From Heptranchias perlo (lineage: Eukaryota): a stretch of 64,000 nucleotides of DNA. Below the pieces are notes generated by a model. That model had not been told where the DNA came from, ran no database searches, and saw only the letters and a list, made by a program, of their open reading frames with translations. Numbering within the stretch: the first letter of the stretch is position 1; each line of letters starts with the position of its first letter. This document shows positions 1 to 26,900 of this stretch, piece after piece. The stretch is taken from assembly GCF_035084215.1 (NCBI RefSeq), contig NW_027139217.1:62001-126000 (forward strand). The letters run 5' to 3'. Position numbers and translations under genes: made by a program.

Positions 1-3000
1 GTCTCCTGGTCGGAACCTCCTGACTGCAGCCTCTCTTACACTGGGCTCTCTGCTCTTCCTGCACCCTCTCGAAATGAGCCCTCACTATGGGGGGAACCGC
101 CTCAATCCGCGCCCCATCTTCACTCTGTGCTCAATAATATTATTGGAGGACCGAGGCCCCTCCCTCCCCGCCCGAGGCCCCTCCCTCCCCGACCGAGGCC
201 CCTCCCTCCCCGACCGAGGCCCCTCCCTCCCGACCGAGGCCCCTCCCTCCCCGACCGAGGCCCCTCCCTCCCTGACCGAGGCCCCTCCCTCCCCGACCGA
301 GGCCCCTCCCTCCCCGACCGAGGCCCCTCCCTCCCTGACCGAGGCCCCTCCCTCCCCGACCGAGGCCCCTCCCTCCCCGACCGAGGCCCCTCCCTCCCTG
401 ACCGAGGCCCCTCCCTCCCCGACCGAGGCCCCTCCCTCCCCGACCGAGGCCCCTCCCTCCCCGACCGAGGCCCCTCCCTCCCCGACCGAGGCCCCTCCCT
501 CCCTGACCGAGGCCCCTCCCTCCCCGACCGAGGCCCCTCCCTCCCCGACCGAGGCCCCTCCCTCCCCGACCGAGGCCCCTCCCTCCCCGACCGACCGAGG
601 CCCCTCCCTCCCCGACCGAGGCCCCTCCCTCCCCGACCGAGGCCCCTCCCTCCCTGACTGAGGCCCCTCCCTCCCTGACCGAGGCCCCTCCCTCCCCGAC
701 CGAGGCCCCTCCCTCCCCGACCGAGGCCCCTCCCTCCCCGACCGAGGCCCCTCCCTCCCTGACCGACCGAGGCCCCTCCCTCCCCGACCGAGGCCCCTCC
801 CTCCCCGACCGAGGCCCCTCCCTCCCCGCCCGAGGCCCCTCCCTCCTCGACCGAGGCCCCTCCCTCCCCGACCGAGGCCCCTCCCTCCCTGACCGACCGA
901 GGCCCCTCCCCGACCGACCGAGGCCCCTCCCTCCCCGACCGAGGCCCCTCCCTCCCCGACCGAGGCCCCTCCCTCCCCGACCGACCGAGGCCCCTCCCTC
1001 CCCGACCGAGGCCCCTCCCTCCCTCCCCGACCGAGGCCCCTCCCTCCCTCCCCGACCGAGGCCCCTCCCTCCCCGACCGAGGCCCCTCCCTCCCCGACCG
1101 AGGCCCCTCCCTCCCCGACCGAGGCCCCTCCCTCCCCGACCGACCGAGGCCCCTCCCTCCCCGACCGAGGCCCCTCCCTCCCTGACCGAGGCCCCTCCCT
1201 CCCCGACCGAGGCCCCTCCCTCCCCGCCCGAGGCCCCTCCCTCCCCGACCGAGGCCCCTCCCTCCCCGACCGACCGAGGCCCCTCCCTCCCCGACCGAGG
1301 CCCCTCCCTCCCCGACCGAGGCCCCTCCCTCCCCGACCGACCGAGGCCCCTCCCTCCCCGACCGAGGCCCCTCCCTCCCTCCCCGACCGAGGCCCCTCCC
1401 TCCCTCCCCGACCGAGGCCCCTCCCTCCCCGACCGAGGCCCCTCCCTCCCCGACCGAGGCCCCTCCCTCCCCGCCCGAGGCCCCTCCCTCCCCGACCGAG
1501 GCCCCTCCCTCCCTGACCGAGGCCCCTCCCTCCCCGACCGAGGCCCCTCCCTCCCCGACCGAGGCCCCTCCCTCCCCGCCCGAGGCCCCTCCCTCCCTGA
1601 CCGAGGCCCCTCCCTCCCCGACCGACCGAGGCCCCTCCCTCCCCGACCGAGGCCCCTCCCTCCCCGACCGAGGCCCCTCCCTCCCCGACCGACCGAGGCC
1701 CCGCCCTCCCCGACCGAGGCCCCTCCCTCCCCGACCGACCGAGGCCCCGCCCTCCCCGACCGAGGCCCCTCCCTCCCCGACCGAGGCCCCTCCCTCCCGA
1801 CCGAGGCCCCTCCCTCCCCGACCGAGGCCCCTCCCTCCCCGACCGAGGCCCCTCCCTCCCCGACCGACCGAGGCCCCGCCCTCCCCGACCGAGGCCCCTC
1901 CCTCCCCGACCGATCGAGGCCCCGCCCTCCCCGACCGAGGCCCCTCCCTCCCCGACCGAGGCCCCTCCCTCCCCGACCGAGGCCCCTCCCTCCCCGACCG
2001 AGGCCCCTCCCTCCCCGACCGAGGCCCCTCCCTCCCGACCGAGGCCCCTCCCTCCCCGCCCGAGGCCCCTCCCTCCCCGACCGAGGCCCCTCCCTCCCCG
2101 ACCGAGGCCCCGCCCTCCCCGACCGAGGCCCCTCCCTCCCCGACCGACCGAGGCCCCTCCCTCCCGACCGAGGCCCCTCCCTCCCGACCGAGGCCCCTCC
2201 CTCCCCGACCGACCGAGGCCCCTCCCTCCCGACCGAGGCCCCTCCCTCCCGACCGACCGAGGCCCCTCCCTCCCCGACCGACCGCGGCCCCTCCCTCCCC
2301 GACCGAGGCCCCTCCCTCCCCGACCGACCGAAGCCCCTCCCTCCCCGACCGAGGCCCCTCCCTCCCCGACCGAGGCCATTCCCTCCCCGACCGAGGCCCC
2401 TCCCTCCCCTCCCAGACCGAGGCCCCTCCCTCCCTCCCTCCCAGACCGAGGCCCCTCCCTCCCCGACCGAGGCCCCTCCCTCATCGACCGAGGCCCCTCC
2501 CTCCCCGACCGAGGCCCCTCCCTCCCCGACCGAGGCTCCTCCCTCCCCGACCGAGGCCCCTCCCTCCCGACCGAGGCCCCTCCCTCCCCGACCGAGGCCC
2601 CTCCCTCCCCGACCGAGGCCCCTCCCTCCCCGACCGAGGCCCCTCCCTCCCCGACCGAGGCCCCTCCCTCCCCGACCGAGGCCCCTCCCTCCCTGACCGA
2701 GGCCCCTCCCTCCCTCCCTCCCCGACCGAGGCCCCTCCCTCCCTGACCGAGGCCCCTCCCTCCCCGACCGAGGCCCCTCCCCGACTGCAGGCCTGAGACG
2801 GGGCAGTGAAGGATCCCGATTTGACCCATCTTTATGCCGGGCCTTTTTGAACATACTCGCGGGTCCCACTGACCCTCTCCACACGGCCCTCGGTTTGAGG
2901 GTTGATCCACGGAGGGCCTCAGACTTTTAATATGGAGGAGGGGACAGAGGCCCTTCATCAGTGTGGACACAGAGGGAGTCCCTGGTCCTTTGGGATCCCT

Positions 3001-3935
3001 ACCCCGGGGAACGCTCTCACTGACCCGCCCGCTATGGTTTTAGGGGCCGTGATCCTCGGTGGAATCGCCTCAGGATCGGGCCTGGAACAGGCAACAACTC
3101 CCAACATATATTGGTGACCTCGCGCTGACCCCTCCAGCGGGCCCACTGGTCCATCCCGATCCTTTCGAAAGGCCCCTCAATTCCGGGGAGAGGGATTAAT
3201 GGAGCGTGATAGTGAGGCCTGGGCCCACACAGCTGACACTGTGGACAGGAGGGACAGAACCCCCGGATCACTTCATCCACCCCTGGCCACAAGACCCACC
3301 TCAACAGCCCCTCCCGAGTTTGCTCTGTCCCCAGGTGAGCTCTGAATAGTTGCTTGTGGCCAAGTCAAGGACTATCTGCCTCTGTGTCCGTGGCACCAGC
3401 AACTGGTCAACTTGCTGCTGCTGCCCCGCACTCTCCCTGTATAGAAGGTCATTCTTTACCGGATAATAAGGCCCCGCACCTTTTGTTTTACCCTCAGTGG
3501 GGTGCCCACTTCTCACTACTCCCTCTTGTTTTATGATTTGGAGGACTGCATCATTTATCTGCTCCTGTTGGAAGTCTGAAAGATCCACATTGAGTCCCTC
3601 GAAATTGAGCCCGTGCTCTCCTGGGAGGCAGCCCGGAGGATCTTCCCTCTGTCCCAGGCCCTGGCTCCATCACTGGGGGTGGAGAAGCAGAGGGAATAGG
3701 GTCTGGTCCCCTCCTAAAGCTCTGGGCTCCTCCTCCCTCCGGCCTCTTGCTTTATCCTCCCTCCGCTCCCTGGTTGATTTTATTATCGGCTGGAAATTCG
3801 ATCCCGTTCTTCGGACTCGGGGGTCGCCCAGGGTTACACAGCCTGGGGAACGTCGGAGATCTGACCAAAGCTCGTCAGCGAGTTGTCGCTCCACCAGGGC
3901 GATCATCACTTGGGCATTGGCCGGGTCTCCCCGGG
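1..3935 (-). mobile_element. Inverted copy of the protease-end/integrase part of the Gmr1-like Gypsy element, decayed
   Basis: Integrase zinc-finger and core motifs (QLLVPRTQRQIVLDLA; WPGVDEVIRGFCPSCPQCQ; PLIPLPGIEGPFERIGMD) on the minus strand; mirror of ~23905-26253. Confidence 0.85.
149..2785. repeat. ~21-bp GC-rich minisatellite (GACCGAGGCCCCTCCCTCCCC)n
   Basis: Directly visible tandem array of about 120 units; source of the spurious 900+ aa ORFs. Confidence 0.97.
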
Positions 3936-3955
3936 GGGGGGGGGGGGAAGCTGCA

Positions 3956-4316
3956 GCAGACAGACAGACAGAGAGACCAGACAGAGACAGACAGACTCAG
4001 ACAGACAGAGAGAGAGACCAGACAGACACAGACTCAGACAGCCAGACTCAGACAGACAGACAGAGACCAGACAGACACAGACTCAGACAGACAGACACAG
4101 ACTCAGACAGACAGACAGAGAGACCAGACAGACACAGACTCAGACAGACAGAGAGACCAGACAGAGAGAGACAGAGAGAGAGAGACCAGACAGAGAGACC
4201 AGACAGAGACAGACAGACTCAGACTCAGACAGACAGACAGACAGACAGAGAGAGACAGAGAGATAGAGACCAGACAGAGACAGAGACAGACAGCCAGACT
4301 CAGACAGCCAGCCAGC
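3956..4316. repeat. Complex (CAGA/GA)n microsatellite
   Basis: Visible low-complexity CAGA/GAGA tract; mirrored at 23635-23875. Confidence 0.95.
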
Positions 4317-5335
4317 CGCAACCCCAGCGCAGGATCCCCGCTCTCCAATCCAGCCGCTCCCGCTCCCGCTCCCGGTCTGGGCCGTGTCTGGGAGCCGTCT
4401 GCCGCTCTCTCTTTACTGAACGGGACGGATCGAGGTGCAGCTCAGACACAGGTCCCGGAATCCCACTCCGCCCACACTCACTGCCTTGTTTCGATCCAGT
4501 GAGTTGGGATTGAATCCAATGCCCATCTGCCCTCCGCTCTCTCAGTTCAGCACTTTATTGAAGCCGAGATTTGGAGCTCTGCTTTCCAGGGTTGCCGCTG
4601 TTTAAGGATTTCTCAGTCCCACCACTCCCAGTAAGAACACTGTTTGCTGCTAAACTCTTGTTTGATCCAAAGCCCCGCTCCTGTTCAATTGAACAAAGGT
4701 TGCCCCAGATTCCTGGGCTGAGAAACACTGACCATTTCTACAAACACTGAAGATGCTGAGCTTTCCGGACTCGAACGATTCTCACTCTGGCCTCACTCCT
4801 CAAAGCTCCTTGATTTGATTCGGGTGCAAATCTTTCATTATGTTGCAACTTGCTCCGGGGAGAGTTCCTTCTCCTCTGGAAAGCGGGCGGCAATCGGCTG
4901 TTCCTCTTCATTTAACACATCCCTGGGGTCAGAAAGACTCAGCATTTTTAACCCGACTCCTAAATACAGTCGGGAAAGTGTCTCACAAACAAAACACAAA
5001 CATTCTTACATTTTCCCCTCACTCGGTAACCAGGTCAGCGTTTCCTTCAGTCCGCAACACAAAGTTACAGGTTGATTCATGGGGATTCCAAAAATGGTTC
5101 ATCTTTTCATAGACTTTAATTAGTTTCATGTCATTCATTAAATAGGTTGACGACAGTTTTGTAAAGTTAATTCCCTGAGTGAGAATCGGACCGGGCGGTG
5201 AGTGCGCCCAATTCTAACACCAGGTCACCAAGGAGCGGGACAGACGATTCACCAAATCCCGTTACTTTGGTCACCTGCCCCTCTCGACTGGGAAAAAACT
5301 TCAGGAGAGAGGCTGGGAAAAGGAGTCCTGTCCCC

Positions 5336-6203
5336 TTAATGAATCTGGTATCAATTAATGAATCTGATCAATTAATGAATCTGGTATCAATTAATGAAAC
5401 TGATATCAATTAATGAATCTGATATCAATTAATGAATCTGGTATCAATTAATGAATCTGATATCAATTAATGAAACTGGTATCAATTAGTGAATCTGATA
5501 TCAATTAATGAATCTGGTATCAATTAATGAATCTGGTATCTATTAGTGAATCTGATATCAATTAATGAATCTGGTATCTATTAGTGAATCTGATATCAAT
5601 TAATGAATCTGGTATCAATTAATGAATCTGGTATCAATTAATGAAACTGGTATCAATTAGTGAATCTGATATCAATTAATGAATCTGGTATCTATTAGTG
5701 AATCTGATATCAATTAATGAATCTGGTATCTATTAGTGAATCTGATATCAATTAATGAATCTGGTATCAATTAATGAATCTGATATCAATTAATGAATCT
5801 GGTATCTATTAGTGAATCTGGTATCAATTAATGAATCTGGTATCAATTAATGAATCTGGTATCTATTAGTGAATCTGATATCAATTAATGAATCTGGTAT
5901 CAATTAATGAATCTGATATCAATTAATGAATCTGGTATCTATTAGTGAATCTGATATCAATTAATGAATCTGGTATCAATTAATGAATCTGGTATCTATT
6001 AGTGAATCTGGTATCAATTAATGAATCTGGTATTAATTAATGAATCTGATATCTATTAGTGAATCTGGTATCAATTAATGAATCTGATATCAATTAATGA
6101 ATCTGGTATCTATTAGTGAATCTGGTATCAATTAATGAATCTGGTATCTATTAGTGAATCTGGTATCAATTAATGAATCTGATATCAATTAATGAATCTG
6201 ATA
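5336..6203. repeat. 19-bp AT-rich satellite (TCAATTAATGAATCTGRTA)n
   Basis: Visible tandem array; reverse complement of the array at 18306-22615. Confidence 0.97.
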
Positions 6204-7608
6204 TACCGTGTCCTGGTATTGAAGTGTGGGAGACCTCCAAAAACAGTGAGAAATGTCTCGGCAGCCAGAAGCAATAATCCAGCCACGAACCTGTAAATCC
6301 TGCATGGTCCCTTTAAATAGAGCCGGTGGGGGGTCCTCCAGACACTCTGAGACTCGTTCAGATGGACACGGGGACATAGTCTAACATTTAGAGCCAGGAC
6401 GTGCAGGAGTGAAGTTAGGAAATGCTTCTACACACAAAGGGTGGGAGATGTTTGGAACGATCTTCTACAGACGGCAGTTGATGCTCGCTCACTTGTGAAT
6501 GTTAAATCTGAGATTGATCGATTTCTGTGAACCAAGGGTATTATGGGATATGGGGCTAAGGCGGGTATATGGAGTGAGGTCACAGGTCCACCATGATCTC
6601 AATGAATGGTGGAACAGGCTCGAGGGGCTAAATGCCACGGCCACTTGCTGCCTCTTGATATGCGCCACCTTCTCCTGCAAGAAAGCGGGACGTGTGTCTG
6701 GGTGATGTGCCTGTCATGGTTGAATAGCTGCCAGTATGTGTGGCCTGTGAGTTGTGGGTGGTCGGCTTGAAACAGTGGTAATGTGTAAGGGTGAGAGGAA
6801 GCATCTGATGGGAAGAGTTGAGTTCTGATGGAAAGAGTTTGTTGGTATGTGGGTGATGGGGGTGTCGTGTGTGGAGCAGTTGGTTGGAGACACCACCTGA
6901 CAGTTGACTTCACTCACCTTGACCACTCATGTCAAAGCATTGAACTTCTTCCTGCACTGCATCCATGTTCATGATGCTGTGCTCCTGGCATTGACTTCAT
7001 CCCCCGCTGCCTCCCACTGCCTTTTGAGTATATGTCTGGAGGGCCTCTTGCCCCTCCCCCACCCCTGCGGATATAGGATGTCCCTCCTTCTGTCCACCTC
7101 TTGCACCAAGGTCTCTCGTGCATCAGCAGAGAACCTTGGTGCACGCACTCTCACAGGCCTGGTACCAACTCAGATCGGCAGATTGGTGAGGTCTGGTGTG
7201 CAGATTGGAGGATGTGGGATTTAGTAGTGTGCAACCTTTATTCAAAGTTTTAACATAACTCATCATTGTGTAAACATAGGGATGGGACCTGCATCTGTGT
7301 TTTATGTGTACGATGTCCGTGCAGACTGTTGTTTTCAGCAAGTAACAGGTCCCAGCTACCTTTAAGAGATTTCTAAGAAACATCCTCCCTTTAAGAGCTG
7401 CACCTCCCCCTGGTGGTGGAAAGTGTGAATTACATTGACTCCAGGTGCGAGGCCTGGGATGGAACGCTGATTACAGGTCAGTCCTCGGGCCGGCCGAGAC
7501 TCACCTCCTGCCTGCCCAGGGTCCATCGGGCGAGGGGTGTGAACATCGCCCAGAACGGACCCTTCTCCAGTTTTTCCCCCGGTGACTTTAATGGTTAGTC
7601 TGTTAGGA
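6204..7608 (-). mobile_element. Harbinger/PIF-like DNA transposon remnant encoding a Myb/SANT-like protein fragment, with a + strand CR1 3' fragment at ~6370-6630
   Basis: ORF 6969..7154 (RAPRFSADARETLVQEVDRRRDILY...WEAAGDEVNARS) matches the Myb/SANT-like DNA-binding domain of Harbinger accessory ORFs; homologous copy at 37100-38380. Confidence 0.7.
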
Positions 7609-10190
7609 TCATAGAATCTTAGAATGGTTACAGCATGGAAGGCGGCCATTCGGCCCATCGAGGCCATGCCGGCTCTCTGCAAGAGCAATCCAACGAGACC
7701 CACTCCCCCGACCTCTCCCCGTAGCCCTGCAAATTTTTTCCCTTCAAGTACTTATCCAGTTCCCTTTTGAAGGCCATGATTGAATCTGCCTCCACCACCC
7801 CCTCGGGCAGTGCATTCCAGATCCTAACCACTCGCTGTGTAAAAAAGTTTCTCCCCATGTCGTCTTTGGTTCTTTTGCCAATTACCTTAAATCTCTGTCC
7901 TTTGATTCTCTCTGCCTTGTGCCAATGGGAACAGTTTCTCTCTATCTACTCTGCCTAAACCCTTCATGATTTTGAACACCTCTATCAAATCTCCCCTTAA
8001 CCTTCTCTGCTCTAAGGAGAACAATCCCAGCTTCTCCAGTCTATCCATGTAACTGAAGTCCCTCATCCCTGGAACCATTCTAGTAAATCTTTTCTGCACC
8101 TTCTCCAAGGCCTTCACATCCTTCCTAAAGTACGGTGCCCAGAATTGGACACAATTCTCCAGCTGTGGCCGAACCAGTCATAACTTCCTTGCTTTTGTTC
8201 TCTATCCTCTATTTATAAAGCCCAGGATCCCCTATGCTTTTTTAACCGCTTTCTCAATCTGACCTGCCACCTTCAGCGATTTGTGTACATGCACCCCCAG
8301 GTCTCTCTGCTCCTGCACCCCCTTTCGAATTGTTCCCTTTAGTTTATATTGCCTCTCCTCATTCTTCCTACCAAAATGTATCACTTCACATTTTTCTGTG
8401 TTAAATTTCATCTGCCACGTGTCCGCCCATTCCACCAGCCTGTCTGTATCCTCTTGAAGTCTATCACTATCCTCCTCACTGTTTACTACACTTCCAAGTT
8501 TTGTGTCATCTGCAAATTTTGAAATTGTGCCCTGTACACCCAAGTCCAAGTCATTAATAAATATCAAGAAAAGCAGTCCCGAGCCCTGGGGAACACCACT
8601 GTACACCTCCCTCCAGTCCGAAAAACAATCGTTCACCACTACTCTCTGTTTCCTGTCACTCAGTCAATTCCGTATCCGTGCTGCCACTGCCCCTTTTATT
8701 CCATGGGCTTCAACTTTACTGATAAGCCTATTATGTGGCACTTTATCAAACACCTTTTGAAAGTCCATATACACAACATCAACCGCATTGCCCTCATCGA
8801 CCCTCTCTGTTACCGCATCAAAAAACTCTATCACGTTAGTTAAACATGATTTGCCTTTAATAAATCCGTGCTGGCCTTTCCTTTATTAATCCACACTTGT
8901 TCAAGTGACTGTTAATTTTGTCCCGGATTATTGTTTCTAAAAGTTTCCCCACCACCGAGGTTAATCTGACTGGCCTGTCCTTTTTTGAACAAGGGTGTAA
9001 CATTTGCAATTCTCCAGTCCTCGGGCACCACCCCCGTATCTAAGGATGATTGGGAGATTATGGCCAGTACCTCCGCAATTTCCACCCTTACTTCCCTCAG
9101 CAACCTAGGATGGATCCCATCGGACCGGGTGACTTTTCTACTTTAAATACAGCCAGCCTTTCTAGCACCTCTTCTTTATCAATTTTTAGCCCATCAAGTA
9201 TCTTAACTATATCTTCCTTTACTGACATTGTGGCAGCATCTTCTTCCTTGGTAAAGACAGATGCAAAGTACTCATTTCGTACCTCGGCCATGCCCTCTGC
9301 CTCCATGCACAGGTCTCCTTTTTGGTCCCTAATTGGCCCCACCCCTCCTCTTACTACCCGTTTACTGTTTATCTGCCGATAGACGACTTTTGGATTCCCT
9401 TTTATGTTAGTTGCCATTCTATTCTCACTCTCTCTCTTTGCCCCTCTTATTTCCTTCTGAACTTTCTATATTCAGCCTGGTTCTCACTTGTGTTATCAAT
9501 CTGATATCTCTCATACGCCCCCTTTCTCTGTTTCATCTTACTCTTTATCTCTTCCGTCACCCAGGGAGCTCTGGCTTTAGTTGTCCCACCTTTCCCCCTC
9601 ATGGAAATGTACCTAGACTGTACCCGAACCATCTCCACTTTAAAGGCCGCCCATTGTTCGATTACAGTCCCACCGGCCGATCTTTGATTCCGATTTACCC
9701 GGGCCAGATCCATTCTCAACTCACTGAAATTGGCCCTCCTCCAATTGAGTATTTTTAATCTAGATTGTTCCTTGCCCTTTTCCATAACTAATCTAAACCT
9801 GATGATACTACGATCACTGTTCCATAAAACTGGTCCCAATGCCCCAGGAATCTAAAGCCCTCGCTCCTGCACCATCTCTCCAGCCACGCATTCATCTGCT
9901 CTATCCTCCTATTTCTATACTCACCAGCGCGTGGCACTGGGAGTAATCCAGAGATTACTACCTTTGAGGTCCTGTTTGTTAATCTCTTTCCTAGCTCCCT
10001 AAAATCTGCCTGCAGGACCTCACCCCTCTTTCCACCTGTGTCGTTGGTACCGATATGGACCATGACCTCTGGCTGTTCACCCTCCCCCCCAAGAATGTTC
10101 TGCAGCCGCTCAGTGACATCCTTGCCCCTGGCACCAGGGAGGTAACACACCATCCTGGACTCACGTCTGCAGCCACAGAAATGCCTGTGT
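7609..10190 (-). mobile_element. CR1 LINE, internally deleted (ORF1 esterase remnant fused to ORF2 RT), frameshifted
   Basis: SGNH-esterase motifs (LPGARGKDV, VMVHIGTND) at 9788..10153; RT motifs SGVPQGS and KFADDTK at 8232..8639; 3' end RNFFTQRVV and (TTCTA)-type tail at ~7610. Confidence 0.9.
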
Positions 10191-11306
10191 GATGGTCAAA
10201 AAGCATAAAAACGAAACAAATAGTTAAAAAGAGCGGGAAACTAGTTTAAACTAAATAAATTAATCAGTTTAAAAAAACTAAAAATAAACCAAGTCAATGA
10301 ATGATATAAAAACTTTGATTCATTCAATAAATAAAACGGGGTTGGATGGAGATGACAGTGCAGGTGGTGCTGTAACTGCAGCGTGTGGGAGTTTGTGGAG
10401 AGCAGTGAGATCCCAGGAAACCACATCTGCAGGAAGTGTCTGCAACTCGAGGAACGTCGGCTCCGAGTTGTTGAGCTGGAGTCCGAGGTGCAGACATGGT
10501 GATGTATCAGGGAGGGGGAGAGTTACCTGGACACTTTGATCCAGGAGGCAGTCACACCCCTTAGATTAGGCGGTGGTTTAGATTCGTTCAGTGGTCAGGG
10601 ACAGGAGGGTGTGACTGTGAGTCAGGCAGGTCTGGGGACCCAGGAGGCAGTGATGGAGGAGCCTCAGCCTTTGACCTTGTCCAACAGGTACGAGGTACTT
10701 GCTACCTGTGTGGATGAGAACAAAGACTGCAGGGAGGATGGGCAAACTGACCACAGCAGCATGGACAGGAGGCCATTCAAGTGGGTTAGTGTTGGGGGAT
10801 AGTATAGTCAGGGGGATAGATACTGTTCTCTGCAGGTGTGACCGGGAGTCCCGAAGGCCGTGTTACCTGCTCGGTGCCGGGGTTAAGGACATCTCCTCAC
10901 GGCTGGAGAAGAACTTGGAGAATGAGGGGAGGATCCAGATAAGATTCTGAGAGGGCTTGACAGGGTAGATGCTGAGAGGCTGTTTCCCCTGGCTGGAGAG
11001 TCTAGAACTAGGGGGCATAGTCTCAGGATAAGGGGTCGGATGTTTGGGACTGAGATGAGGAGGAATTTCTTCACTCAGAAGATTGTGAATCTTTGGAATT
11101 CTCTACCCCAGAGGGCTGTGGATGCTCAGTCATTGAGTATATTCGAGGCTGAGATCGATAGATTTTTGGACACTGAGGGAATCGAGGGATCTGGGGATCG
11201 GACAGGAAAGTGGAGTTGAGGTCGAAGATCAGCCATGATGCGATTGAATGGTGGAGCAGGATCGAGGGGCCCTGTGGCCTACTCCTGCTCCTATTTCTTA
11301 TGTTCT
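10190..11306 (+). mobile_element. CR1 LINE ORF1 remnant joined directly to a CR1 3' end
   Basis: ORF1 zinc-finger/coiled-coil remnant and esterase motif VLGDSIVRGID (10699..10950), then CR1 3' terminus ending in CCTATTTCTTATGTTCT at ~11300. Confidence 0.8.
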
Positions 11307-11384
11307 AAGGCCAGGGATGGAGTCTGGGCCCATCCTGGTCTCTGTGGGGCTCAGGACCACACCGGGTGAGATCAACTATCGCAG

Positions 11385-11962
11385 TGCAGGCCGGGGATGG
11401 AGTGTGGGGACGATCTGCTCTGTGTGGGATTCAGTATCACACCGGGTGTGATCAGGGTGATACAGCACAGGCCAGGGATGGAGTGTGGGGATGATCTGCT
11501 CTGTGTGGGGTTCAGTATCACACCGGGTGTGATCAGGGTAATACAGCACAGGCCGGGGATGGAGTGTGGGGATGATCTGCTCTGTGTGGGGTTCAGTATC
11601 ACACCGGGTGTGATCAGGGTGATACAGCACAGGCCGGGGATGGAGTGTGGGGATGATCTGCTCTGTGTGGGGTTCAGTATCACACCGGGTGCGATCAGGG
11701 TAATACAGCACAGGCCAGGGATGGAGTGTGGGGATGATCTGCTCTGTGTGGGGTTCAGTATCACACCGGGTGTGATCAGGGTAATACAGCACAGGCCGGG
11801 GATGGAGTGTGGGGATGATCTGCTCTGTGTGGGATTCAGTATCACACCGGGTGTGATCAGGGTGATACAGCACAGGCCGGGGATGGAGTGTGGGGATGAT
11901 CTGCTCTGTGTGGGGTTCAGTATCACACCGGGTGTGATCAGGGTAATACAGCACAGGCCGGG
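11385..11962. repeat. 81-bp minisatellite, ~7 copies, palindromic core ATCACACC-G-GGTGTGAT
   Basis: 27-aa periodicity in the ORF track; visible tandem units. Confidence 0.95.
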
Positions 11963-12441
11963 GCTGATGCAGAGAGACAGACCCACGTGTTGTGTTCTGT
12001 AACTTTTACAAACACTTCAGTGTATTTCACTCCGTCTCCAACACTGTGAGGTCTCCCCTGGTGTGTCAGCTCTCTGTGTTTAGAAAGAGGGTAATTTATT
12101 GAATGGTCTCTTGGATCACATGGTGTGACAGACGGGGGTCTGTGTGTAGGGGGTTTGAGGGGGGGTGAGCTCTGATTCCCGTCCCCTTCTAGATTGAAAG
12201 GAGGAAAGAATTAATGAGAGAGAGAGCAGTGATGTGGGAGAAGGGATGATGGGAGAATTTGTCCATGAACCTGATCAAAAGTGGCCCAAAGACTGGATAA
12301 TATTCCGATATCATCAGTAGATCATGGACAGAAGCTGAGCTCGGAGATCTGCTCAGGTCCCATTCCCCTGAAGTGAGGAATGAGCGGGAGGGGCAATAGA
12401 TTTACTTCCAAAAGGGTGACCCAAAGTCTGATTTGCTGTGG

Positions 12442-13100: not shown

Positions 13101-13267
13101 CATGTGTCCAGTTGGAAACCTGTCTGAAGGAACATCAGTCTGACAGAGCCAGAAATCCAGCAGATTGACCTTTGCTCTGAGCAGATGATGAGCCTCCTTC
13201 TTCAGAGTGTTTCGCCAATCCAGCTCAGAGGGGATTAAACATCATGGATTCAAATGGGAGATAGTTT

Positions 13268-13500: not shown

Positions 13501-13509
13501 CCTTGAAGG

Positions 13510-16180: not shown

Positions 16181-16419
16181 AAATTAATGGTCCAGTCACA
16201 CTTTCGCTGTAAAATGTCACTTCCCAGCGCCGTAAGCACCGAACCCTGAACTAAAATACAACTCTGGTGGGACTGGAACCCACAAACTTTAAATTTTTGT
16301 TCAGCCATCCAATTAGAAGTCCAACACACATTGCGAGACGGTTTGTCCAATACAGAGTGCTGTCTCTCTCTCCCTTTTGCTCTCCCTCGCTCTCTCTTGC
16401 ACTCTCACTCTCCCCCTTT

Positions 16420-17390
16420 ATCTCGGGGACTGGAATACAAAGGGGAGGAAGTTATGTTCCAGCTGGTCAGACCACAGTTCTGGGCACCGCACCTCAAGAC
16501 CATGGCAGATGGAAAATAACATGGAAAAATGTGAAGTTATCCACTTCGGAAGGAAAAACAGAAATGTCGAGTACTTTTTAAATGGTAAGAGATTGGGAAA
16601 TGTTGATGTTCAAAGGGACCTGGGTGTCCTTGTACATGCGTCACTGAAAGCTAACATGCAGGTGCAGCAAGCAATTAGGAAGGCAAATAGGATGTTGGCC
16701 TTAATTACAAGAGCATTTGAGTACAGGAGTAAAGATGTCTTCCTACAATTATATCGGGCCTTGGTGAGACCACACCTGGAGTATTGTGCACAATTTTTGG
16801 TCTCCTTACCGAAGGAAAGAGAGGGAGTGCAACAAAGGTTCACCAGACTGATTCCTGGGATGGCGGGATTGTCGTATGAGGAGAGATTGAGTAGACTGGG
16901 CCTGTATTCTCTAGAGTTTAGAAGAATGAGAGGTGATCTGATTGAAACATACAAAATTCTTACAGGGCTCGACAGGGTAGATGCAGGGAGGATGTTTCCC
17001 CAGGCTGGGGAGTCTAGAACCAGGGGTCACAGACTCAGAATAAGGGGTCGGCCATTTAGGACTGAGATGAGGAGAAATTTCTTCACTCAGAGAGTGGTGA
17101 ATCTTTGGAATTTTCTACCCCAGAGGGCTGTGGAGGCTCAGTCATTGAGTACATTCAAAACAGAGATCGATAGATTTCTAGATATTAAAGGCATCAAGGG
17201 ATATGGGGATAGTGCAGGAAAATGGCGTTGAGATAGAGGATCAGCCATGATCAGATTGAATGGTGGAGCAGGCTCGAGGGGCCGGACGGCCTACTCCTGC
17301 TCCTATTTCTTATGTTCTTATGTTCTTAAAGAAGGATATATTAGCCTCTGGGCTTGAGGGGCTGAATGGCCTCGTCCTGTTCCTATGTTC
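16420..17390 (+). mobile_element. CR1 LINE RT C-terminus and 3' UTR
   Basis: KCEVIHFG, LVRPHLEYC, RRNFFTQRVV; (TTCTTATG)n tail at ~17310. Confidence 0.9.
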
Positions 17391-18305
17391 CAATGAATGA
17401 AACAATAATTCAGGTATAGAGACCAGGATGTTTCGGGGTATGTGAGGGAATCATGTTTCCTGTTTAAAGTGTTGATTTCAGGATTTGACTGTCCTCAGTG
17501 TCCCAGCTCAGTGAAGTCCAGTCCGGAGAAGCTGCTCCCACAAAGTGGCATTTTCTGTGAGGATGTGAAATACTTGTTGAGACAGTGACAGGACCGAGTG
17601 CGGGTCGGTCTGTGCGTGAAATAGAAAGTGAGGTGAAATATTACCACAAGCTGCTGATGTCCCTGTTCACATTTATAAAATTCACGGAGGGGCCAAATCG
17701 ACACAGCTCCTGGGAAAGCTGCGAGGCCACCCAGGGCCGTCTTGCATCATTTGAAGCAACTGGCACACACCAGATTCTGCCCGTTTCACCCGCCATCTCC
17801 TGCTTCTGACTCTTTCCCTCCAGCTCCCTCTGCTCCTCCAGCTGCCGGTGAATTAAATACTCGATTCAAGCAGCGAATTCATGAAACCCATCCTGACATT
17901 GAGAGCAGGGAGAGAGAGAGAGAATGAACGGGGCTGGTCATTGAGAGGGGAATGGATTTTACACATGTCCAGATAAATAAACACAAGGATCTCATCTCCC
18001 TGTTTTGTTCCGATACAGAATATCTTAATGGTCAGGAGATGATCTCACTGTCCCCCAGGCCCATTATCCCCACTCACACCCTCGGTCCAATCTCACACAC
18101 TTTGCTTCGCTGTGAGATCCTGTATGTTTTCACACTGAGATTTAATTTGAAGAATGCGGTGTTGTGATAACCTGGGGCTATTGAGGAGACGCAGAGCAAG
18201 AAGGTACATGAAAGGCTAATGATAACGGTGAGTGTTCTGACACTGTGAGGTACAGTTAAAGACTGGAAACATTTCAGGTCTCATGCAGCAGGTCCTTCTC
18301 GTGTC

Positions 18306-21300
18306 AATAGATATCAGATTCATTAATCGATATCAGATTCATTAATTGATATCAGATTCATCAATCGATATCAGATTCATTAATTGATATCAGTTTCATT
18401 AATTGATACCAGATTCATTAATCGATATCAGATTCATTAATCGATATCAGATTCATTAATCGATATCAGATTCATTAATTGATATCAGTTTCATTAATTG
18501 ATACCAGATTCATTAATCGATATCAGATTCATTAATAGATATCAGATTCATTAATCGATATCAGATTCATTAATCGATATCAGATTCATTAATTGATATC
18601 AGTTTCATTAATTGATACCAGATTCATTAATCGATATCAGATTCATTAATCGATATCAGATTCATTAATTGATATCAGTTTCATTAATTGATACCAGATT
18701 CATTAATCGATATCAGATTCATTAATCGATATCAGATTCATTAATTGAGATCAGTTTCATTAATTGATACCAGATTCATTAATTGATCAGTTTCATTAAT
18801 TGATACCAGATTCATTAATTGATCAGTTTCATTAATTGATACCAGTTTCATTAATTGATACCAGATTCATTAATTGATCAGTTTCATTAATTGATATCAG
18901 TTTCATTAATTGATACCAGATTCATTAATTGATATCAGTTTCATTAATTGATACCAGATTCATTAATTGATATCAGTTTCATTAATTGATACCAGATTCA
19001 TTAATTGATCAGTTTCATTAATTGATACCAGTTTCATTAATTGATATCAGATTCATTAATAGATACCAGTTTCATTAATTGATACCAGATTCATTAATTG
19101 ATCAGTTTCATTAATTGATATCAGTTTCATTAATTGATACCAGATTCATTAATTGATCAGTTTCATTAATTGATACCAGATTCATTAATTGATCAGTTTC
19201 ATTAATAGATACCAGTTTCATTAATTGATACCAGATTCATTAATTGATATCAGATTCATTAATTGATCAGTTTCATTAATTGATACCAGTTTCATTAATT
19301 GATACCAGATTCATTAATTGATATCAGATTCATTAATTGATATCAGATTCATCAATTGATACCAGATTCATTAATTGATATCAGATTCATTAATTGATAT
19401 CAGATTCATTAATTGATCAGTTTCATTAATTGATATCAGTTTCATTAATTGATACCAGTTTCATTAATTGATATCAGTTTCATCAATTATTACCAGATTC
19501 ATTAATTGATATCAGATTCATTAATTGATCAGTTTCATTAATTGATATCAGTTTCATCAATTGATACCAGATTCATTAATTGATATCAGTTCCATCAATT
19601 GATACCAGATTCATTAATTGATATCAGATTCATTAATTGATCAGTTTCATTAATTGATACCAGATTCATTAATTGATATCAGATTCATTAATTGATCAGT
19701 TTCATTAATTGATACCAGATTCATTAATTGATACCAGTTTCATTAATTGATGTCAGATTCATTAATTGATCAGTTTCATTAATTGATACCAGATTCATTA
19801 ATTGATATCAGTTTCATCAATTGATACCAGATTCATTAATTGATATCAGTTTCATTAATTGATCAGTTTCATTAATTGATACCAGATTCATTAATTGATA
19901 TCAGTTTCATTAATTGATATCAGTTTCATCAATTGATACCAGATTCATTAATTGATATCAGTTTCATTAATTGATACCAGATTCATTAATTGATATCAGT
20001 TTCATTAATTGATATCAGTTTCATCAATTGATACCAGATTCATTAATTGATATCAGATTCATTAATTGATCAGTTTCATTAATTGATTCCAGATTCATTA
20101 ATTGATACCAGTTTCATTAATTGATACCAGATTCATTAATTGATCAGTTTCATTAATTGATACCAGATTCATTAATTGATCAGTTTCATTAATTGATACC
20201 AGATTCATTAATAGATACCAGTTTCATTAATTGATATCAGTTTCATCAATTGATACCAGATTCATTAATTGATATCAGATTCATTAATTGATCAGTTTCA
20301 TTAATTGATATCAGTTTCATTAATTGATACCAGATTCATTAATTGATATCAGTTTCATCAATTATTACCAGATTCATTAATTGATATCAGATTCATTAAT
20401 TGATCAGTTTCATTAATTGATATCAGTTTCATCAATTGATACCAGATTCATTAATTGATATCAGTTCCATCAATTGATACCAGATTCATTAATTGATATC
20501 AGATTCATTAATTGATCAGTTTCATTAATTGATACCAGATTCGTTAATTGATATCAGATTCATTAATTGATCAGTTTCATTAATTGATACCAGATTCATT
20601 AATTGATACCAGTTTCATTAATTGATGTCAGATTCATTAATTGATCAGTTTCATCAATTGATACCAGATTCATTAATTGATATCAGTTTCATCAATTGAT
20701 ACCAGATTCATTAATTGATATCAGTTTCATTAATTGATCAGTTTCATTAATTGATACCAGATTCATTAATTGATATCAGTTTCATTAATTGATATCAGTT
20801 TCATCAATTGATACCAGATTCATTAATTGATATCAGTTTCATTAATTGATACCAGATTCATTAATTGATATCAGATTCATTAATTGATCAGTTTCATTAA
20901 TTGAATCCAGATTCATTAATTGATACCAGTTTCATTAATTGATACCAGATTCATTAATTGATCAGTTTCATTAATTGATACCAGATTCATTAATTGATCA
21001 GTTTCATTAATTGATACCAGATTCATTAATAGATACCAGTTTCATTAATTGATATCAGTTTCATCAATTGATACCAGATTCATTAATTGATATCAGATTC
21101 ATTAATTGATCAGTTTCATTAATTGATATCAGTTTCATTAATTGATACCAGATTCATTAATTGATATCAGTTTCATCAATTATTACCAGATTCATTAATT
21201 GATATCAGATTCATTAATTGATCAGTTTCATTAATTGATATCAGTTTCATCAATTGATACCAGATTCATTAATTGATATCAGTTCCATCAATTGATACCA

Positions 21301-22615
21301 GATTCATTAATTGATATCAGATTCATTAATTGATCAGTTTCATTAATTGATACCAGATTCATTAATTGATATCAGATTCATTAATTGATCAGTTTCATTA
21401 ATTGATACCAGATTCATTAATTGATACCAGTTTCATTAATTGATGTCAGATTCATTAATTGATCAGTTTCATCAATTGATACCAGATTCATCAATTGATA
21501 CCAGATTCATTAATTGATATCAGTTTCATTAATTGATACCAGATTCATTAATTGATATCAGATTCATTAATTGATCAGTTTCATTAATTGATTCCAGATT
21601 CATCAATTGATATCAGTTTCATTAATTGATACCAGATTCATTAATAGATATCAGTTTCATTAATTGATACCAGATTCATTAATTGATATCAGATTCATTA
21701 ATTGATACCAGATTCATTAATTGATATCAGTTTCATGACTTGATATCAGATTCATTAATTGATCAGTTTCATTAATTGATACCAGATTCATTAATTGATA
21801 TCAGATTCATTAATTGATCAGTTTCATTAATTGATACCAGATTCATTAATTGATACCAGATTCATTAATTGATCAGTTTCATTAATTGATACCAGATTCA
21901 TTAATTGATCAGATTCATTAATTGATACCAGATTCATTAATTGATCAGATTCATTAATTGATACCAGATTCATTAATTGATCAGTTTCATTAATTGATAC
22001 CAGATTCATTAATTGATCTCAGATTCATTAATTGATACCAGATTCATTAATTGAGATCAGATTCATTAATTGATACCAGATTCATTAATTGAGATCAGTT
22101 TCATTAATTGATACCAGATTCATTAATTGATCTCAGATTCATTAATTGATACCAGATTCATTAATTGAGATCAGTTTCATTAATTGATCAGATTCATTAA
22201 TTGATACCAGATTCATTAATTGATCTCAGATTAATTAATTGATACCAGATTCATTAATTGAGATCAGTTTCATTAATTGATACCAGATTCATTAATTGAT
22301 ACCAGATTCATTAATTGAGATCAGTTTCATTAATTGATCTCAGATTCATTAATTGATACCAGATTCATTAATTGATATCAGTTTCATTAATTGATATCAG
22401 ATTCATTAATTGATCTCAGATTCATTAATTGATATCAGATTCATTAATTGATCTCAGATTCATTAATTGATACCAGATTCATTAATTGATATCAGTTTCA
22501 TTAATTGATCAGTTTCATCAATTGATACCAGATTCATTAATTGATACCAGATTCATTAATTGATATCAGTTCATTAATTGAGATCAGATTCATTAATTGA
22601 TACCAGATTCATTAA
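18306..22615. repeat. 17/19-bp AT-rich satellite (CAGWTTCATTAATTGATAY)n, ~4.3 kb, with higher-order duplications
   Basis: Visible array; diagnostic variants (TTATTACC, GTTCCATC, GATGTCAG) recur at offsets of 875 and 818 bp. Confidence 0.97.
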
Positions 22616-23634
22616 GGGGACAGGACTCCTTTTCCCAGCCTCTCTCCTGAAGTTTTTTCCCAGTCGAGAGGGGCAGGTGACCAAAGTAACGGGATTTGGT
22701 GAATCGTCTGTCCCGCTCCTTGGTGACCTGGTGTTAGAATTGGGCGCACTCACCGCCCGGTCCGATTCTCACTCAGGGAATTAACTTTACAAAACTGTCG
22801 TCAACCTATTTAATGAATGACATGAAACTAATTAAAGTCTATGAAAAGATGAACCATTTTTGGAATCCCCATGAATCAACCTGTAACTTTGTGTTGCGGA
22901 CTGAAGGAAACGCTGACCTGGTTACCGAGTGAGGGGAAAATGTAAGAATGTTTGTGTTTTGTTTGTGAGACACTTTCCCGACTGTATTTAGGAGTCGGGT
23001 TAAAAATGCTGAGTCTTTCTGACCCCAGGGATGTGTTAAATGAAGAGGAACAGCCGATTGCCGCCCGCTTTCCAGAGGAGAAGGAACTCTCCCCGGAGCA
23101 AGTTGCAACATAATGAAAGATTTGCACCCGAATCAAATCAAGGAGCTTTGAGGAGTGAGGCCAGAGTGAGAATCGTTCGAGTCCGGAAAGCTCAGCATCT
23201 TCAGTGTTTGTAGAAATGGTCAGTGTTTCTCAGCCCAGGAATCTGGGGCAACCTTTGTTCAATTGAACAGGAGCGGGGCTTTGGATCAAACAAGAGTTTA
23301 GCAGCAAACAGTGTTCTTACTGGGAGTGGTGGGACTGAGAAATCCTTAAACAGCGGCAACCCTGGAAAGCAGAGCTCCAAATCTCGGCTTCAATAAAGTG
23401 CTGAACTGAGAGAGCGGAGGGCAGATGGGCATTGGATTCAATCCCAACTCACTGGATCGAAACAAGGCAGTGAGTGTGGGCGGAGTGGGATTCCGGGACC
23501 TGTGTCTGAGCTGCACCTCGATCCGTCCCGTTCAGTAAAGAGAGAGCGGCAGACGGCTCCCAGACACGGCCCAGACCGGGAGCGGGAGCGGCTGCATGAG
23601 AGAGCGGGGATCCTGCGCTGGGGTTGCGGCTGGC

Positions 23635-23904: not shown

Positions 23905-26900
23905 CCCCGGGGAGACCCGGCCAATGCCCAAGTGATGATCGCCCTGGTGGAGCGACAACTCGCTGACGAGCTTTGGTCAGATCTCCGACGTTCCCCAGGC
24001 TGTGTAACCCTGGGCGACCCCCGAGTCCGAAGAATGGGATCGAATTTCCAGCCGATAATAAAATCAACCAGGGAGCGGAGGGAGGATAAAGCAAGAGGCC
24101 GGAGGGAGGAGGAGCCCAGAGCTTTAGGAGGGGACCAGACCCTATTCCCTCTGCTTCTCCACCCCCAGTGATGGAGCCAGGACCTGGGACAGAGGGAAGA
24201 TCCTCCGGGCTGCCTCCCAGGAGAGCACGGGCTCAATTTCGAGGGACTCAATCTGGATCTTTCAGACTTCCAACAGGAGCAGATAAATGATGCAGTCCTC
24301 CAAATCATAAAACAAGAGGGAGTAGTGAGAAGTGGGCACCCCACTGAGGGTAAAACAAAAGGTGCGGGGCCTTATTATCCGGTAAAGAATGACCTTCTAT
24401 ACAGGGAGAGTGCGGGGCAGCAGCAGCAAGTTGACCAGTTGCTGGTGCCACGGACACAGAGGCAGATAGTCCTTGACTTGGCCACAAGCAACTATTCAGA
24501 GCTCACCTGGGGACAGAGCAAACTCGGGAGGGGCTGTTGAGGTGGGTCTTGTGGCCAGGGGTGGATGAAGTGATCCGGGGGTTCTGTCCCTCCTGTCCAC
24601 AGTGTCAGCTGTGTGGGCCCAGGCCTCACTATCACGCTCCATTAATCCCTCTCCCCGGAATTGAGGGGCCTTTCGAAAGGATCGGGATGGACCAGTGGGC
24701 CCGCTGGAGGGGTCAGCGCGAGGTCACCAATATATGTTGGGAGTTGTTGCCTGTTCCAGGCCCGATCCTGAGGCGATTCCACCGAGGATCACGGCCCCTA
24801 AAACCATAGCGGGCGGGTCAGTGAGAGCGTTCCCCGGGGTAGGGATCCCAAAGGACCAGGGACTCCCTCTGTGTCCACACTGATGAAGGGCCTCTGTCCC
24901 CTCCTCCATATTAAAAGTCTGAGGCCCTCCGTGGATCAACCCTCAAACCGAGGGCCGTGTGGAGAGGGTCAGTGGGACCCGCGAGTATGTTCAAAAAGGC
25001 CCGGCATAAAGATGGGTCAAATCGGGATCCTTCACTGCCCCGTCTCAGGCCTGCAGTCGGGGAGGGAGGGGCCTCGGTCAGGGAGGGAGGGGCCTCGGTC
25101 AGGGAGGGAGGGGCCTCGGGGGAGGGAGGGGCCTCGGTCAGGGAGGGAGGGGCCTCGGTCAGGGAGGGAGGGGCCTCGGGGGAGGGAGGGGCCTCGGTCA
25201 GGGAGGGGCCTCGGTCAGGGAGGGAGGGGCCTCGGTCAGGGAGGGAGGGGCCTCGGTCAGGGAGGGAGGGGCCTCGGTCAGGGAGGGAGGGGCCACGGTC
25301 AGGGAGGGAGGGGCCTCGGTCAGGGAGGGAGGGGCCTCGGTCGGGGAGGGAGGGGCCTCGGTCGGGGAGGGAGGGGCCTCGGTCGGGGAGGGAGGGGCCT
25401 CGGGGGAGGGAGGGGCCTCGGTCAGGGAGGGAGGGGCCTCGGGGGAGGGAGGGGCGTCGGTCAGGGAGGGAGGGGCCTCGGGGGAGGGAGGGGCCTCGGT
25501 CAGGGAGGGGCCTCGGTCAGGGAGGGAGGGGCCTCGGTCAGGGAGGGAGGGGCCTCGGTCAGGGAGGGAGGGGCCTCGGTCAGGGAGGGAGGGGCCTCGG
25601 TCAGGGAGGGAGGGGCCTCGGGAGAGGGAGGGGCCTCGGTCAGGGAGGGAGGGGCCTCGGTCAGGGAGGGAGGAGCCTCGGTCAGGGAGGGAGGGGCCTC
25701 GGTCAGGGAGGGAGGGGCCTCGGTCGGGGAGGGAGGGGCCTCGGTCGGGGAGGGAGGGGCCTCGGTCGGGGAGGGAGGGAGGGGCCTCGGTCGGGGAGGG
25801 AGGGAGGGGCCTCGGTCGGGGAGGGAGGGAGGGGCCTCGGTCGGGGAGGGAGGGAGGGGCCTCGGTCGGGGAGGGAGGGAGGGGCCTCGGTCGGGGAGGG
25901 AGGGAGGGGCCTCGGTCGGGGAGGGAGGGGCCTCGGTCGGGGAGGGAGGGGCCTCGGTCGGGGAGGGAGGGGCCTCGGTCGGTCGGGGAGGGAGGGGCCT
26001 CGGTCGGGGAGGGGCCTCGGTCGGGAGGGAGGGGCCTCGGGCGGGGAGGGAGGGGCCTCGGTCGGGGAGGGAGGGGCCTCGGGCGGGGAGGGAGGGGCCT
26101 CGGTCCTCCAATAATATTATTGAGCACAGAGTGAAGATGGGGCGCGGATTGAGGCGGTTCCCCCCATAGTGAGGGCTCATTTAGAGAGGGTGCAGGAAGA
26201 GCAGAGAGCCCAGTGTAAGAGAGGCTGCAGTCAGGAGGTTCCGACCAGGAGACCGAGTTACGGTCCTCGTTCCCACACCTGAAACAAGCTCTTTGCAGGG
26301 TGGCAGGGACTTTAGGAGGTTCTAGAGGCTGTGGGCCCAGTGAACTATAAGGTCAGGCAACCTCAGAGAAGGAAGCCTGACCAGAAAGACCATGTGCCCC
26401 TCCTGAAGCCATGGAGAGAGAGAGGCCCTCGCAGTGATGGAGAAAGCACTAGGGGGGCCCTGGCTCCAAGGTACAAAGCCCAGTTCACCTCTCTAGTGAG
26501 CTGCCTGAGGATCAGTGCAGGCAGGCTCAGCACCTGGGAGATGGAACCTGCAATGTATTCACATCTGGGCCTGGGAGGACGGGGGCCATCTGCTCTCACC
26601 TGGTGACACCACCAGGAGTGACAATAAAGGTCAGACCGGACCGAATCCCAGAAGCCAAACGGAGGGAGGTTCGCCAGGAGATTCCGAGGGTGTTGATCTT
26701 CGGGCTGATTGAAGAATCACGGTGAACGGAGCAGCCCCATTGTGTTGGTTCTGAATCCCGATGGGAATTGGCGATTCTGAAATGACTTTCGGAAACTGAA
26801 TGAGGATTGAAATCCGATGCTTTCCCGATGCCCCGGGGGGATGAGTTGATTGAGAGATTGGCGAAGGCCCCTTCGATCTTACCCCCTTCGATCTGACCAA

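Follow-up and report, generated by a model that had tools for sequence, protein, structure and literature searches.

Does a second MHC class I gene lie just to the left of the window, that is, of the 64-kb stretch of Heptranchias perlo DNA analysed here, and does it face away from it? The question is raised by an inverted repeat whose right-arm run ends in an intact class I gene, and whose left arm is cut by the window edge. In the first-pass annotation, positions 1-6203 were described as mirroring about 18306-26253 outside the tandem arrays, around a non-duplicated spacer of about 12 kb, with the left arm still matching at the edge of the window. Self-BLAST and global alignments confirmed all of these points, showing three collinear non-array blocks and arm homology that persists up to base 1.

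1..6204, minus strand: left arm, carrying the class I upstream unit in inverted orientation; the window edge cuts the integrase region of a fossil element
1-148 against 26253-26106, inverted: non-array block 1, 1 mismatch in 148
2794-3931 against 25047-23909, inverted: non-array block 2, 3 mismatches in 1,138
4312-5335 against 23633-22616, inverted: non-array block 3, 3 mismatches in 1,018 and one 6-bp gap
22616..23633, plus strand: unique 1-kb block common to both arms
149..2793, no strand: 21-bp GC-rich minisatellite in the left fossil, 117 parsed units
25048-26105, no strand: 21-bp array of the right arm, 49 parsed units
5336..6204, no strand: 19-bp AT-rich minisatellite closing the left arm, 45 parsed units
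18304..22615, no strand: 19-bp minisatellite opening the right arm in the orientation opposite to its left counterpart, 225 parsed units
6205..18303, no strand: non-duplicated spacer with decayed LINE pieces, SINE-like pieces and an 81-bp array

Once the minisatellites are set aside, 7 of 2,304 aligned columns differ between the arms (0.30%, 95% interval 0.12-0.62%), with an additional 12-bp difference in the G/C run at 3932. The longest exact matches between them measure 794 and 1,010 bp, far above chance (BLAST E=0.0 for the second block). With 2,304 non-array columns at 99.7% identity in three collinear blocks, the repeat is an inverted segmental duplication, being over 1 kb long, over 90% identical, in opposite orientation and not just a dispersed repeat. 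Both inner ends coincide with the ends of the 19-bp array, at 6204 on the left and about 18304 on the right, and alignment shows the flanking sequences beyond the two arrays to be unrelated. The spacer between them (~12.1 kb) contains minus-strand RVT_1 matches in 7600-10199 and 13510-16190; self-BLAST found no arm-level match in 6205-18303, and a search of the same interval for class I exon remnants returned chance-level matches only. The shared 1-kb block lacks a Pfam match in the three plus-strand frames, and past the 21-mer array only 148 bp of the left arm fall within the window.

The arrays behave differently from these blocks. They account for ~62% of the left arm and do not match base for base, their lengths differing 1.4- to 5-fold between the arms. 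The CAGA-type repeat, for example, covers ~350 bp in the left arm and ~240 bp in the right. One 19-mer variant accounts for 10 of the 45 left units and none of the 225 right units, while another is absent from the 45 left units and present in 37 of the 225 right ones. Homogenisation thus does not extend along the whole length of the arms, where all three arrays are of unequal length and have unit variants private to one arm, and the arrays have turned over independently in the two arms. Rapid array mutation could also account for the differences between them.

Rightwards, the right-arm run continues through a retroelement fossil and promoter-like motifs into the gene.

23909..28011, plus strand: decayed Gmr1-type Ty3/Gypsy element with many stops and frameshifts
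about 24480-24620, plus strand: Integrase_H2C2 (Pfam E 2e-7)
about 26320-26410, plus strand: Integrase_p58_C, the integrase C-terminus (Pfam E 3e-4)
about 27470-27800, plus strand: RT_RNaseH, the RNase H (Pfam E 8e-10)
about 27915-28011, plus strand: purine tract and LTR-like stub, the stub at 27926-28011
28970, plus strand: ISRE-like motif, a sequence motif only
29017, plus strand: X-box-like motif, a sequence motif only
29051 and 29155, plus strand: Y-box (inverted CCAAT), a sequence motif only
29207..30196, no strand: 43-bp minisatellite, downstream of the promoter-like motifs and ahead of the ATG
30262..30310, plus strand: class I exon 1, leader
31640..31900, plus strand: exon 2, alpha1 (Pfam MHC_I), N at the Y59 position
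40021..40293, plus strand: exon 3, alpha2 (Pfam MHC_I), R at the K146 position
41109..41384, plus strand: exon 4, alpha3 (Pfam C1-set)
42162..42287, plus strand: exon 5, connecting peptide and transmembrane (TM) segment

The integrase lies upstream of the RNase H, which is the Gmr1-type gene order, and the fossil sits in the continued right arm where a Gmr1 reverse transcriptase (RT) had been annotated; the RT itself is without a Pfam match and was assigned from motifs by eye. Within the window, a second copy of the LTR-like stub, as paired LTRs would require, is absent. Since both arms carry the same broken element together with 1 kb of non-coding flank and array, the copying came after the fossil had decayed. 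Downstream, the motifs at 28970..29163, which resemble ISRE, X-box and Y-box, mark a putative promoter, and the ATG at 30262 stands 4,009 bases past 26253, in agreement with the promoter, class I gene and ATG that had been placed about 4 kb beyond that position.

Leader, alpha1, alpha2, C1-set alpha3 and TM segment occupy separate exons with an open frame, identifying a class I heavy chain. Cytoplasmic tail exons like those of the paralogs were not found in 42288-64000 and could sit beyond the window. Classical class Ia molecules anchor the peptide termini through Y7, Y59, R84, T143, K146, W147, Y159 and Y171. The window protein keeps six of these eight residues, with Y59 replaced by N and K146 by R, and so lacks the full anchor set of a classical class Ia (UAA) molecule; its nearest relative of solved structure is nurse shark UAA, 6LUP (E 2e-98). 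Named references of the shark class Ib lineages UBA, UDA and UEA do not appear among its listed database matches. Its alpha1 clusters with nine proteins, most of which lack Y59, from four other shark genera (SH-aLRT 99 in a quick tree, two long rows omitted), and its alpha3 matches classical-like paralogs. Intron 2 contains a relic exon-2 end. The idea of a chimeric gene was set aside: with the two long rows omitted, an all-Heptranchias clade for alpha1 (p=0.086) and, for alpha2, a clade uniting it with the nine proteins (p=0.57) both survive the AU test.

The spliced window protein is identical to P0037/P0033 over 328 of 328 residues, in a record labelled Heptranchias perlo, and the alternative end of P0033 fits an acceptor at 50148. 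Its scaffold is 612,036 bp long, and five further class I proteins (P0005, P0034, P0035, P0036 and P0018) are listed for a contig of that very length, here taken to be the same scaffold; P0038, P0039 and P0041 are found on three other contigs; some of the four class I-bearing contigs could be alternative haplotypes. The five scaffold neighbours comprise two intact near-twins (P0035 and P0036, differing at 6 and 5 of 328 residues), one truncated near-twin (P0034, which ends after alpha2) and two proteins with diverged grooves. Among the eight other proteins, alpha3 is identical at 91 of 92 residues and the TM exon at 40-41 of 42 in all except P0034, and alpha1 identity ranges from 57 to 86 of 87.

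Runs X1, X4 and X6, whose organism code is that of the Heptranchias perlo record, represent one sample, possibly the source of the window assembly, and are not independent. In X1, one contig (26106-26625, depth 461) spans 26253 without a difference. Contig depth from the fossil through the promoter is 434-590 in X1 and 195-267 in X4, with promoter values (590 and 260) not below those of the fossil, and minor-variant contigs reach depths of 27-192 (X1) and 16-101 (X4). Contig depth is no copy number, and as an estimate uncalibrated against single-copy sequence, these values suggest that the upstream unit is present in roughly 7-10 copies. Between the right arm and the majority contigs, 4 of 1,762 positions differ. 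The left-arm allele at 26183 is not among the contig variants listed, which carries no weight because contigs drop rare variants. Run X5, which has another organism code, carries the fossil with 14 differences in ~1,406 bases and a promoter piece with 7 differences in 234, showing that neither is private to this assembly. Run X6, guessed to be RNA, reaches depth 30 in a contig covering 28946-29206 but scarcely covers the fossil, and no expression is concluded from it.

We favour, as fairly probable, a reading in which the arms are two members of a multi-copy unit consisting of minisatellite, dead Gmr1-type retrotransposon, promoter and class I gene, so that a second gene would probably lie to the left. 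The fossil would have inserted and decayed once, and then travelled with the cluster as segmental duplication enlarged it; one copy would have been inverted, with the break probably at the 19-bp array that ends both arms. Repeated duplication, family-wide gene conversion, or both, likely keep the upstream DNA and the leader, alpha3 and TM exons near-identical, while alpha1 and alpha2 differ. Kilobase-long exact matches would permit flipping of the gene-free 12-kb spacer or conversion between the arms, and nothing shows that exchange between these two arms exceeds exchange with other copies.

On this sequence evidence, a class I gene left of the window and facing away from it is quite likely to exist, because the scaffold carries five further class I proteins and because contig depth is steady between 26253 and the promoter. 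It may not be a near-twin of the window gene, since the five scaffold candidates vary, and its offset of about 4 kb hinges on the 990-bp array, whose length there probably differs. The left arm might instead be an orphan fragment, an inverted copy that stops in the fossil or promoter, with the class I gene absent or surviving as a remnant only. Just 148 bp are visible past the 21-mer array, the truncation of P0034 after alpha2 shows that broken copies exist in the family, and the depth scatter of 434-590 exceeds one copy in about eight, leaving a single early-ending arm below resolution. However, promoter depth is at least that of the fossil in both X1 and X4, no loose end falls between 26106 and 27977 among the contig ends listed, and five more class I proteins are listed for a contig of the scaffold's length; we therefore consider an orphan fragment unlikely. 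Nor does it seem at all probable that a haplotype or paralog was misjoined in inverted orientation via the 19-bp array during assembly. Both junctions do lie at array ends in a region rich in long minisatellites, and the family is spread across four short contigs, but the arms are non-identical and differ in array unit make-up, the sequences past the two arrays are unrelated, unlike those of a fold-back chimera, and the unit is multi-copy anyway.

The first-pass annotation had also proposed a special, young palindromic pair exchanging sequence arm to arm, and this did not find support. A private pair of twin genes kept alike in this manner would suit the 0.30% divergence, the exact runs of 794 and 1,010 bp and the intact near-twins P0035 and P0036 on the scaffold. 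Yet the right arm is about equally near to the family majority and to the left arm, the 7/2,304 between the arms being no smaller than the 4/1,762 between right arm and majority (Fisher p=0.77, for different stretches and a majority contig that is not a single copy). Furthermore, the three arrays are unequal and carry private unit variants, several copies rather than two offer conversion many partners, and two of the five candidates for the neighbour are diverged in the groove, all of which makes such a pair doubtful. We likewise give a slim chance to head-to-head, tail-less, non-classical UAA-like genes of a deep-branching shark forming a true palindrome with arms interconverting as on Y chromosomes; if true, arm conversion would maintain a uniform promoter, leader and alpha3, and other family members would supply the groove exons. 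Retroelement makes up much of the arms outside the arrays, as two separate insertions of one young retrotransposon in opposite orientation, with no gene duplication involved, would leave it. This is scarcely credible given that the element is broken identically in both arms, that the window yielded no second LTR, that the shared unit continues for 1 kb and an array past recognisable coding sequence, and that depth is the same over the promoter, which lies outside the element.

The multi-copy unit that we favour can be set beside known systems. Y-chromosome palindromes consist of inverted arms around a non-duplicated spacer. Such arms also flank a non-duplicated spacer in a palindromic segmental duplication of mouse chromosome 12, SD12A1, in the part of the account drawn on here (PMC13688818); the visible shark arms differ from both in being 6-8 kb long, mostly unequal minisatellite and 99.7% alike in their unique parts, and in belonging to a several-copy family. 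As described in part for the Gmr1 clade of Ty3/Gypsy elements (PMC8220671), the integrase precedes the RT/RNase H region on one strand, but the window element is fully decayed, split by minisatellite and without an LTR pair, and the Gmr1 call rests on domain order. In the human genome, according to the relevant section of PMC6562477, HERV16 recurs at least twelve times with HLA class I sequences, and the HLA class I/HERV16/MIC duplicon resembles the shark unit in that a class I gene is duplicated with a dead LTR element tagging each unit. The shark passenger, in contrast, is a Gmr1-type Ty3/Gypsy fossil, its copies are ~99.7% alike and without a visible MIC-like partner, and two neighbours are inverted around a 12-kb spacer. 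Newt MHC-I genes, in the portion of PMC12863176 considered, show lineage-specific duplications and conversion that is commoner in alpha3 and leaves it little diverged, whereas near-identity in the shark spans kilobases of upstream DNA. Among the main texts of open papers, no inverted or head-to-head class I pair was found in a shark.

We would class the locus as a known kind, a class I duplicon tagged by a retroelement in the manner of HLA/HERV16, with inversion of one copy. Class I growth as duplicons tagged by dead retroelements, with alpha3 homogenisation, is already known, and the architecture is therefore unsurprising. The fossil-plus-promoter unit provides a neutral marker for ordering, orienting and dating about nine class I copies in a hexanchiform shark, and could separate conversion from recent duplication. 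The MHC of the order to which Heptranchias perlo belongs seems little studied, with a literature search on this species and its MHC turning up one mitochondrial paper. For elasmobranchs, the part of PMC10751288 drawn on here describes a single classical gene in each genome, with Ia-like genes amid zinc-finger genes; its 'MHC-Ia-like' genes near UAA are similar to ours as extra UAA-like class I genes in species-dependent number, but zinc-finger neighbours are absent from the 64-kb window. If several classical-looking and non-classical genes share a single alpha3 and a single upstream region, the 'single class Ia gene' view of sharks would gain a refinement.

By comparing the window with itself, and repeating the comparison with the tandem arrays masked, we found three collinear inverted blocks joining the left arm (1–6204, minus strand) to the DNA upstream of the class I gene (right arm, from 18304).

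Inverted blocks, left arm against right arm
1–148 against 26253–26106, inverted block 1
2794–3931 against 25047–23909, inverted block 2
4312–5335 against 23633–22616, inverted block 3

As the first-pass annotation had proposed, the arms are nearly identical outside the arrays: 7 of 2,304 aligned non-array bases differ (0.30%, 95% interval 0.12–0.62%), a G/C run adds a further 12 bp of difference, a single gap of 6 bp is present, and the longest exact runs measure 794 and 1,010 bp. Three of the seven substitutions cluster with the 6-bp gap in 14 bp (4346–4359 versus 23592–23599), probably a single complex event, so that the true event count is probably below seven substitutions plus a gap. Homology still holds at base 1, the window edge, and the non-duplicated spacer, predicted at about 12 kb, measures 12.1 kb; it holds decayed LINEs, and no class I exons were found in it. 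A LINE 3′ end and a second repeat are collinear at 6409–7317 (spacer) and 36845–37914 (intron 2 of the window gene) with 83–87% identity, reflecting either an older duplication or common repeats paired by chance.

The remainder of both arms is minisatellite, and these portions are not mirror images. The 21-mer array has 117 units on the left versus 49 on the right, the CAGA-type repeat about 350 versus 240 bp, and the 19-mer array 45 versus 225 units; the end of this last array is the inner boundary of each arm, with unrelated sequence beyond. One variant of the 19-mer occurs in 10/45 left and 0/225 right units, a second in 0/45 left and 37/225 right units. Minisatellites are unusually dense throughout the window: it has about 20 arrays, one of them a 7-kb 48-mer array at 55185–62160, and several start at exon edges or close to them.

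Translation of the right arm with stops as X, followed by a Pfam domain search, revealed a decayed retroelement (the fossil, 23909–28011, plus strand).

Domains of the fossil, in order along the right arm
Integrase_H2C2, plus strand, Pfam E 2e-7
Integrase C-terminal domain, plus strand, E 3e-4, under the Pfam cut-off
RT_RNaseH, plus strand, Pfam E 8e-10

No RT domain was matched by Pfam in the right arm, its motifs being discernible by eye across frames. Integrase ahead of RT/RNase H is shared with Gmr1 elements, of which an integrase preceding RT is the hallmark (PMC8220671), and upholds the earlier placing of a Gmr1-type element ahead of the promoter-like motifs and gene. The fossil is full of stops and frameshifts, and its sole LTR trace is an LTR-like stub. 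Its lesions are common to both arms wherever comparable, showing that the unit was copied after the element's death.

Promoter-like motifs at 28970–29163 precede the ATG (30262) by ~1.1 kb; the interval contains a 43-mer array of 990 bp, possibly within a 5′ UTR intron. The right arm indeed runs into an open class I frame of five GT-AG exons (30262, 31640, 40021, 41109 and 42162), matching Pfam MHC_I and C1-set, whose ATG lies 4,009 bases beyond 26253, where about 4 kb had been predicted. Its closest solved relative is nurse shark UAA (6LUP). Of the eight peptide-terminus anchor residues, six are kept (Y59 is N, K146 is R), and a search of the 21.7 kb between exon 5 and the window end (42288–64000) turned up no cytoplasmic-tail exons; on both counts the gene looks, from its sequence, non-classical and UAA-like. 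Database models of it end by read-through into intron 5 or at acceptor 50148, within a decayed same-strand LTR element (43684–51165; LTR-like pair 43684–43975 and 50874–51165, 87%; zinc knuckle and RNase H matches). The short ending recurs in database proteins P0005 and P0035, both on the same scaffold, and the tail is retained in P0036. Intron 2 contains, at ~32507–32580, a relic of an exon-2 3′ end plus donor site, which ends QSGG like classical-type paralogs, not QSVG. A GC-rich array lies between this relic and the gene's own exon 2, and the relic is a possible trace of exon replacement.

An alpha1 protein search listed 29 matches of 46 candidates, 5 of them covered by a cluster look-up, and yielded proteins labelled Heptranchias perlo. 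P0037 and P0033 are identical to the window protein (328/328 residues), and five further proteins are listed for the same 612,036-bp contig.

Other class I proteins labelled Heptranchias perlo, compared with the window protein
P0035, 612,036-bp contig, 6 residue differences
P0036, 612,036-bp contig, 5 residue differences
P0034, 612,036-bp contig, near-identical, stops after alpha2
P0005, 612,036-bp contig, diverged groove (alpha1 71/87, alpha2 72/91)
P0018, 612,036-bp contig, diverged groove (alpha1 57/87, alpha2 72/91)
P0038, P0039 and P0041, on three other contigs

The matches listed thus amount to about nine related loci, some of which may be alternative haplotypes. Alpha3 identity is 91/92 in 7 of the 8 other proteins and leader identity 15–16/16 in all eight; since copies with 66–70% identical alpha1 share almost identical alpha3 and leader, high flank identity gives no gene age. 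Similar alpha3 despite diverged grooves recalls newt class I genes, in which this pattern has been ascribed to conversion (PMC12863176). P0018, P0038, P0039, P0041 and P0044 retain the classical anchor residues completely or almost so, and these classical-looking proteins have two alpha3 types, P0044 being nearer nurse shark UAA; Heptranchias perlo may therefore have more than one classical-looking class I gene. A mixed alpha1 versus alpha3 history, suggested by trees, was not established by AU tests.

Contigs from 4 of 24 listed sequencing runs were placed on the array-free stretch 26106–29206; at least half of 26106–31900 was covered in four runs, all from one sample. One contig of run X1 spans 26253 with zero differences. 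X1 depths were 461, 521, 477 and 434 (fossil), 488 (LINE-like piece) and 590 (promoter), those of X4 195–267 (fossil) and 260 (promoter), and minor-variant contigs had 27–192 (X1) and 16–101 (X4). If ~60–70 is one diploid locus in X1, an assumed baseline with contig depth no strict copy number, the upstream unit exists in roughly 7–10 copies, in agreement with the protein count. The left-arm allele at 26183 is absent among the contig variants listed, the contigs being uninformative on this point. Run X5, of another organism code, differs at 14 of about 1,406 fossil bases and 7 of 234 in a promoter piece; its differences at 26322, 26632, 26639, 26672 and 26814 coincide with minor variants of X1 or X4, which suggests copy-specific variants common to both organism codes.

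The arms are best explained, with reasonable probability, by a fossil-tagged class I unit multiplied through segmental duplication, with one copy inverted. A Gmr1-type element would have inserted ahead of a UAA-like gene and degenerated there, the combined unit would have been multiplied, and one unit would have been inverted through breakage within or at the 19-bp array. The ATG of a left-facing class I gene would then be expected a few kb beyond the left window edge, some 34 kb away from the window ATG, each gene having its own promoter. That a class I gene exists there is likely; that it is an intact near-twin has roughly even chances.

The left arm could instead be an orphan ending early without a gene, which is unlikely: X1 and X4 contig depths give no sign of surplus fossil copies lacking the promoter, although their scatter exceeds one copy in eight and a single early-ending arm would escape notice. 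Rather improbable, too, is a private palindrome of twin genes converting arm to arm; the first-pass annotation had envisaged a palindromic pair able to exchange sequence in this way. Between the majority contigs and the right arm there are 4 differences in 1,762 positions (26705, 26874, 27128 and 27632), a rate indistinguishable from the arm-to-arm one (p=0.77), in a comparison that is indicative only, being of different stretches and of a majority versus single copies. As the arrays have also turned over independently, there appears to be no reason to regard the arms as a privileged pair. An assembly misjoin is very improbable, and two separate insertions of the retroelement, rather than copying of a dead one, are scarcely credible.

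In carrying a dead LTR-type retroelement along with a class I gene, the multiplied unit resembles the HLA/HERV16 duplicons, class I duplicons bearing a dead LTR element (PMC6562477); such a duplicon is already known in kind, and this locus is an added case. Among elasmobranchs, the number of UAA-like genes is reported to vary (PMC10751288). No description of this locus, or of inverted or head-to-head class I pairs matching it, was found in open-access main texts, including by species and MHC. The Heptranchias perlo locus offers a handle on an apparently unstudied shark class I cluster.
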